In this document: one piece after another, positions 12,657 through 12,869 of the stretch
Layout: every line of letters starts with the position of its first letter
Numbering within the stretch: the first letter of the stretch is position 1
NCBI RefSeq assembly: GCF_057098645.1
Contig: NZ_CM169472.1
Reading direction: 5' to 3' (one strand)
Length of the DNA stretch: 64,000 nt
Notes under the pieces: model-generated
What the model was told of the DNA's origin: nothing
The model's database searches: none
The model's input: only the letters and a program-made list of their open reading frames with translations
Program-made: the position numbers and the translations under genes

Positions 12657-12869
12657 TGCGATTCTCCAGACAGGGCAAATTCCAGCACATATTACCCAAA
12701 CTTATAGGTCGCGACGAGATGACGCGTTAACACTTCTGCAAAATTCAGGATAAATAACGTCCATCAATCTCACTTTTGGCGAATGGCTGAAGCCAACGCC
12801 GTGTAGTGATATGATAGAAGTATTCGTGTCTGAGATTGTCTCTGACTCCATAATTCGAAGGTTACAGTT

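Follow-up and report, generated by a model that had tools for sequence, protein, structure and literature searches.

In E. coli K-12, the gene order kbl-htrL-rfaD is the standard annotation of the region that borders the genes for LPS inner-core synthesis, and htrL itself is thought to be linked to LPS. Strain MG1655 carries kbl (b3617), htrL (b3618), and rfaD/hldD (b3619), with 1435 bp between the start codons of kbl and rfaD and with htrL (858 bp) on the minus strand. The K-12 HtrL protein matches PF09612 (7.9e-131) and TIGR02192, i.e., the HtrL_YibB family of unknown function, and its comparison to PDB sequences gave chance-level matches only (E of at least 0.24) and therefore no relative among solved structures. 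LOS/LPS loci of other genera include HtrL_YibB proteins that have been listed as uncharacterised (PMC4172580), and a pan-genome comparison listed htrL/yibB as an accessory gene varying among clinical E. coli isolates (PMC8303582).

The 64-kb stretch of DNA that we analysed (the window) carries kbl, which encodes glycine C-acetyltransferase / 2-amino-3-ketobutyrate CoA ligase and is the first gene of the kbl-tdh operon, directly next to the divergently oriented hldD (Table 1). A preliminary description of this locus had counted 213 bp without any gene between kbl and hldD and had stated that K-12 encodes htrL at this position. The distance is exact according to the coordinates of the ORF list, MG1655 does carry htrL here instead of being likewise geneless, and E. 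coli O145 strain RM9872 (100% identical to the window over 901 bp in a megablast search of 5426 complete E. coli genomes) is annotated with kbl followed by rfaD and nothing intervening. The window shows neither an ORF of the HtrL_YibB family (PF09612 / TIGR02192) nor the spacer of ~1.4 kb that are characteristic of K-12, and HtrL-like coding was absent from the entire 64 kb when searched by tblastn with K-12 HtrL (best E = 5.5).

Table 1. Features of the kbl-hldD region in the window (positions as in the whole stretch).
Feature	Position	Strand	Basis or remark
kbl	11460..12656	-	398-aa ORF; annotated as kbl in the identical genome RM9872; 99.5% identity to the K-12 flank
kbl-hldD divergent intergenic region, geneless	12657..12869		213 bp; ORF list, Pfam, Rfam, tblastn
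kbl-proximal block common with K-12	12657..12760	-	99.5% identity to K-12 up to 12760
kbl ribosome-binding site GGAG	12667..12664	-	Within the kbl-proximal block
Candidate kbl -10 hexamer TAATAT	12694..12689	-	Invariant ATATTA in multi-genus alignment; putative promoter
Left breakpoint of the K-12-type 1283-bp htrL segment against window 12761..12821	12760..12761		Pairwise BLAST
Native Escherichia allele of the putative hldD promoter	12761..12821	+	Family-wide alignments; 61 bp absent as such from K-12
Conserved hldD-side block GGCGAATGGCTGAAG	12778..12792	+	Multi-genus alignment
-35-like CTGAAG	12787..12792	+	Followed by a 17-nt spacer
Extended -10 TGaTATGAT	12807..12815	+	Consensus and conservation
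hldD leader (putative 5' UTR)	12822..12869	+	Common to htrL-positive and htrL-negative haplotypes
hldD-leader hairpin GUCUGAGA-uug-UCUCUGAC	12828..12846	+	7 bp plus one U.U mismatch, 3-nt loop
Shine-Dalgarno AAGG of hldD	12858..12861	+	In the leader
hldD/rfaD	12870..13802	+	310-aa ORF; annotated in RM9872 and K-12

When the interval is aligned with the kbl-htrL-hldD region of K-12 by pairwise BLAST, as the preliminary description had proposed, the flanks match and delimit the difference. Window 12557-12760 corresponds to positions 6453-6656 of the K-12 locus (L001) at 99.5% identity and window 12822-12969 to L001:7940-8087 at 99.3% identity, and between these flanks the 61 bp of window 12761..12821 stand where K-12 has 1283 bp (L001:6657-7939). 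The left breakpoint sits in the centre of the spacer, where conservation is lowest as judged from a multi-genus alignment, and no direct repeats or traces of mobile elements at the K-12 breakpoints were seen by eye on the junction sequences. With 36% GC, the K-12 segment stands apart from kbl (54%) and rfaD (51%). Inside this segment, a promoter-like site and a terminator-like hairpin of its own bracket htrL, which makes it a self-contained cassette. The sole counterpart of the K-12 segment in the window is a diverged 61-bp promoter block.

In family-wide alignment, the K-12 segment ends with ~62 bp (…AAAGGGCTGAAGGGATTCGGATGTGATGGTATGATTACAGAC; L001 7878..7939) that align as the same promoter block as the 61 bp of the window. 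The window allele is 95% identical to the one of E. albertii, 88% to Citrobacter, and 53% to K-12, while the K-12 allele reaches 72-77% identity to those of Atlantibacter, Enterobacter, Kluyvera, and Kosakonia. Compared directly with each other, the 61 bp of the window and the 62 bp of K-12 are not significantly similar (92 of 2000 shuffles reach the observed score), and the homology of the two segments rests on the family-wide alignment. The 53%-identity allele is the putative hldD promoter allele carried by htrL-positive E. coli (K-12, O157:H7), and sequence comparison suggests that this divergent allele was imported together with htrL.

Using window 12300-13200 as the megablast query, we found that 3465 of the 5426 complete E. 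coli genomes (64%) are contiguous across the junction like the window and that 1959 (36%) contain the htrL segment, on the chromosome every time (together 5424 genomes having the locus). The distribution over LPS core types was surveyed with a synthetic query that joined the htrL segment to rfaD and to waaL from each of the K-12, R1, R2, and R3 cores, and 60 genomes, sampled systematically along the resulting ranking, were read. All 15 genomes with an R3 core carry htrL, the K-12 core is divided (5 with htrL, 6 without), the R1 core is mostly htrL-negative (19 genomes, compared to 2 with htrL), and htrL is missing from all 5 genomes with an R2 core as well as from the 8 genomes with none of the four waaL types, one of which is R4 (GT25 waaX beside waaL, 213-bp spacer). 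The database is skewed to laboratory K-12 derivatives and O157:H7, so that these proportions are descriptive only. According to the annotation of RM9872, the window has the gene set of an R1 core, ordered as waaL on the opposite strand and then GT2 (waaV-like), waaW, waaY, waaT-like, and waaO, and the waaL of the window groups with the commonest htrL-less class. As the R1 core mostly goes without htrL, the window is in the usual state for its core type.

Two individual E. coli genomes show further variation at this locus. Strain 10 (NZ_CP048330.1, positions 6001..7630 of its locus), which has an R2 core, lacks htrL and has a spacer of exactly 213 bp that is 84% identical to the window. Its haplotype is divergent, with 92% identity over kbl-rfaD, and appears to have been acquired by recombination from a distantly related lineage of Escherichia; its rfaD is annotated with 981 bp (vs 933 bp), followed by an 80-bp gap before rfaF. 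In the R1-core strain PKF8 (NZ_CP156813.1, 5044..6266 of its locus), IS1 stands in place of the whole of tdh, kbl, and htrL and the greater part of waaH, and 218 bp of htrL-type upstream region remain before rfaD, which amounts to a separate IS-mediated deletion event at this locus. The waaH gene of the window is intact (9152..10186, 344 aa), and the one of E. coli O157:H7 strain ECP19-2498 (5391..6426 of its locus) is annotated as frameshifted.

For the outgroups, a one-genome-per-species collection was searched with a 68-nt degenerate pattern located toward the 5' end of rfaD, which returned 64 loci, 61 of them with both gene starts captured; the sample consists of the genomes that match this pattern, and E. 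fergusonii, E. marmotae, and S. enterica subsp. enterica are not among the returned loci. In 59 of these 61 enterobacterial loci, kbl and rfaD are immediate, divergently oriented neighbours at a distance of 202-229 bp (median 215), e.g., 213 bp in E. albertii and Klebsiella pneumoniae, 214 bp in Citrobacter, 215-216 bp in Enterobacter, and 202 bp in Salmonella enterica subsp. diarizonae. The 213 bp of the window fall within this ancestral-type spacing of adjacent, divergent genes ~200-230 bp apart. Within the outgroup set, htrL has just two occurrences, one in Escherichia sp. MOD1-EC7003 and one on a contig resembling E. coli from a contaminated MAG. This MAG ("Bacillota bacterium OH_SDB_141") contributes two short contigs with an E. 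coli kbl-rfaD locus (~99-100% protein identity), one without and one with htrL, which indicates that its bin is contaminated by two different E. coli strains.

Since nearly all outgroup loci are short and the divergent R2 haplotype has 213 bp as well, it follows that the short spacer is most likely ancestral and that htrL was gained in part of Escherichia. The preliminary description was therefore right that the locus differs from K-12, but it is the K-12 arrangement that appears derived and not the window that has the unusual form. Overall, we assign a probability of roughly 0.9 to the reading that the interval in the window is the ancestral enterobacterial kbl-hldD divergent control region and that the K-12 arrangement arose later, in part of Escherichia. 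The spacer would comprise back-to-back promoters, leftward for kbl-tdh and rightward for hldD-waaF-waaC, plus a leader with a small hairpin, and in the lineage of the window it would never have held htrL. In part of Escherichia, the low-GC segment of 1283 bp would have displaced 61 bp in the centre and right part of the spacer, bringing in the self-contained htrL cassette (own promoter and terminator, ~1.22 kb) followed by ~62 bp with a foreign hldD promoter allele. The most likely mechanism seems to be homologous recombination with an enterobacterial donor outside Escherichia in which htrL already lay upstream of hldD, with crossovers that we would place at the conserved leader start on the right (12822) and just past the kbl-side conserved block on the left (12760). 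No source of the htrL segment turned up in the sampled loci, and since none of the 59 htrL-less outgroup loci carries htrL, a donor with htrL beside hldD is hypothetical.

The opposite polarity would make htrL the original state of this site in E. coli, later lost in the lineage of the window, with the 213 bp as a deletion product. This seems highly improbable to us, even if 36% of the complete E. coli genomes and one other Escherichia species have htrL at the same site and losses evidently occur, as illustrated by the IS1-mediated waaH-tdh-kbl-htrL deletion in PKF8. The short spacer shared by 59 of 61 informative outgroup loci, E. albertii included, largely refutes such a scenario, and the 61 bp of the window are no scar but a conserved promoter block with 95% identity to E. 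albertii. Moreover, neither the spacer nor the remainder of the window contains a remnant of htrL, and it is the htrL segment that is foreign in composition (36% GC) and associated with a promoter allele that is not Escherichia-like.

The conservation of the ancestral-type spacer is partitioned. In the multi-genus alignment, the kbl-side block is near-invariant across genera around CACATATTACC and ACGAGATGA and the centre of the spacer (~12761-12777) is poorly conserved, while on the hldD side window 12778..12815 conforms to a family block of GGYGAATGGCTGAAG, ~13-17 nt, and TGnTATGAT that aligns in all genera. Strict scans of 12500..13000 for sigma-70 promoters and intrinsic terminators called no site, so that our promoter assignments rest on conservation. 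Together with the consensus, this conservation points to 12787..12815 as the candidate hldD promoter, and transcription of hldD would be predicted to start ~7 nt past the -10 element at ~12822, precisely where identity to K-12 resumes. The leader from there to hldD differs from the divergent R2 haplotype by one mismatch. According to a review, the gmhD(htrM)-waaFC operon is heat-induced (PMC8745692). In the Salmonella diarizonae spacer, 12 bp are missing between the conserved GGATGAA (-35-like) and TAGTGATATGAT (-10), resulting in a putative promoter geometry unlike that of all other sampled genera.

The strong block conservation and a covarying structured element at 12828..12846 could also be taken as signs of a small unannotated gene or sRNA that is concealed in the spacer and stands in for htrL. 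We regard this as even less probable than a deletion: Three ORFs of at least 40 aa touch the spacer (12608..12730 on the plus strand with 40 aa, 12770..12982 on the minus strand with 70 aa, and 12702..13175 on the minus strand with 157 aa), but none of at least 40 aa lies wholly within it, and no Rfam match was obtained at E <= 1 in 12400..13100. The conserved blocks sit as expected of two divergent promoters, and the structured element is a hairpin in the hldD leader that is unchanged in htrL-positive K-12 and hence no substitute for htrL. The 157-aa ORF had already been dismissed in the preliminary description, and this judgment is borne out: It has no Pfam match, lies antisense over hldD, and its frame contains stop codons in Klebsiella and Enterobacter and, over the upstream part, in K-12, so that we reject it as a gene and consider it a shadow ORF. 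As a last alternative, a short spacer caused by misassembly or collapse is effectively excluded by the same 901 bp being contiguous in 3465 complete genomes, one of them 100% identical, and by the likewise 213-bp spacer of E. albertii.

The leader hairpin is conserved in ~50 enterobacterial species via compensatory changes (CUGAGA/UCUCAG, CCGGGA/UCCCGG, CCUGGA/UCCAGG), with arms such as CCUGAGA…UCUCAGG, GUCCGGGA…UCCCGGAC, or CCCUGGA…UCCAGGG in other genera. Among 54 distinct sequences, 86% of cells are paired compared to 21-56% with partners slid by 1-3 columns, both sides change in 5 of the 7 pairs, and none of 500 shuffles reached this pairing or covariation. The closing A-U and G-C pairs are conserved and the outer pairs covary, a pattern that includes the window, and G-U pairs are seen in the hldD-sense orientation. 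An independent consensus fold by RNAalifold retains the inner 4 pairs, and the hairpin is part of the MFE fold of the window leader, the energy of which is unexceptional (z = -0.07). It matches no Rfam family and, being unchanged in htrL-positive K-12, is unrelated to the htrL polymorphism. Regarding its role, our guess is that it may stabilise the 5' end of the hldD mRNA. A more far-reaching idea, which we consider tentative and rather doubtful, is that the hairpin could be an undescribed cis-acting RNA element setting the stability or translation of the hldD-waaF-waaC mRNA and that htrL-positive lineages (K-12, O157:H7, and others with an R3 core) would drive the same leader from an imported promoter, such that inner-core LPS might be regulated differently in htrL-positive and htrL-negative strains.

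The difference in htrL content is an ordinary and already known kind of strain-to-strain gene-content polymorphism, with the window in the ancestral, majority state. K-12 should thus not be used as the reference state at kbl-hldD, where htrL is an accessory gene of about one third of sequenced E. coli, and the absence of htrL from the window should not be annotated as a deletion; beyond such correct annotation, it is of little importance. The putatively foreign hldD promoter allele of htrL-positive strains and the leader hairpin may bear on the expression of the heptose/inner-core operon, but neither is specific to the window. They are minor by-products of our analysis that may merit note for LPS specialists.

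Among the described systems, the K-12 MG1655 locus has the same flanks as the window (kbl-tdh on the left, hldD-waaF-waaC on the right) and shares the 104 bp adjoining kbl and the 48-bp hldD leader at 99% identity; it differs by having the 1283-bp segment (htrL with PF09612 plus the divergent hldD promoter allele) instead of the 61 bp. The kbl-hldD loci of other Enterobacteriaceae share the organisation of the window—adjacent, divergent, and 202-229 bp apart, with the same conserved blocks on the kbl side and the hldD side (GGTGAATGGCTGAAG ... TGnTATGAT) and the same leader hairpin with compensatory changes—and differ only by ordinary sequence divergence of the central spacer. Similar to the polymorphism of the LPS core types (R1, R2, R3, R4, and K-12 waa loci), htrL would be another low-GC, recombination-borne variable element at the waa edge, but its presence or absence is not strictly tied to the core type. 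Finally, enterobacterial mRNAs with stabilising stem-loops at their 5' terminus are known, e.g., the ompA leader. The hairpin in the window resembles these ompA-type structures in being short, conserved by compensatory changes, and located a few nucleotides from the predicted 5' end of the hldD transcript, whereas its short stem of 7 bp, which carries a U.U mismatch in E. coli, is energetically unexceptional.
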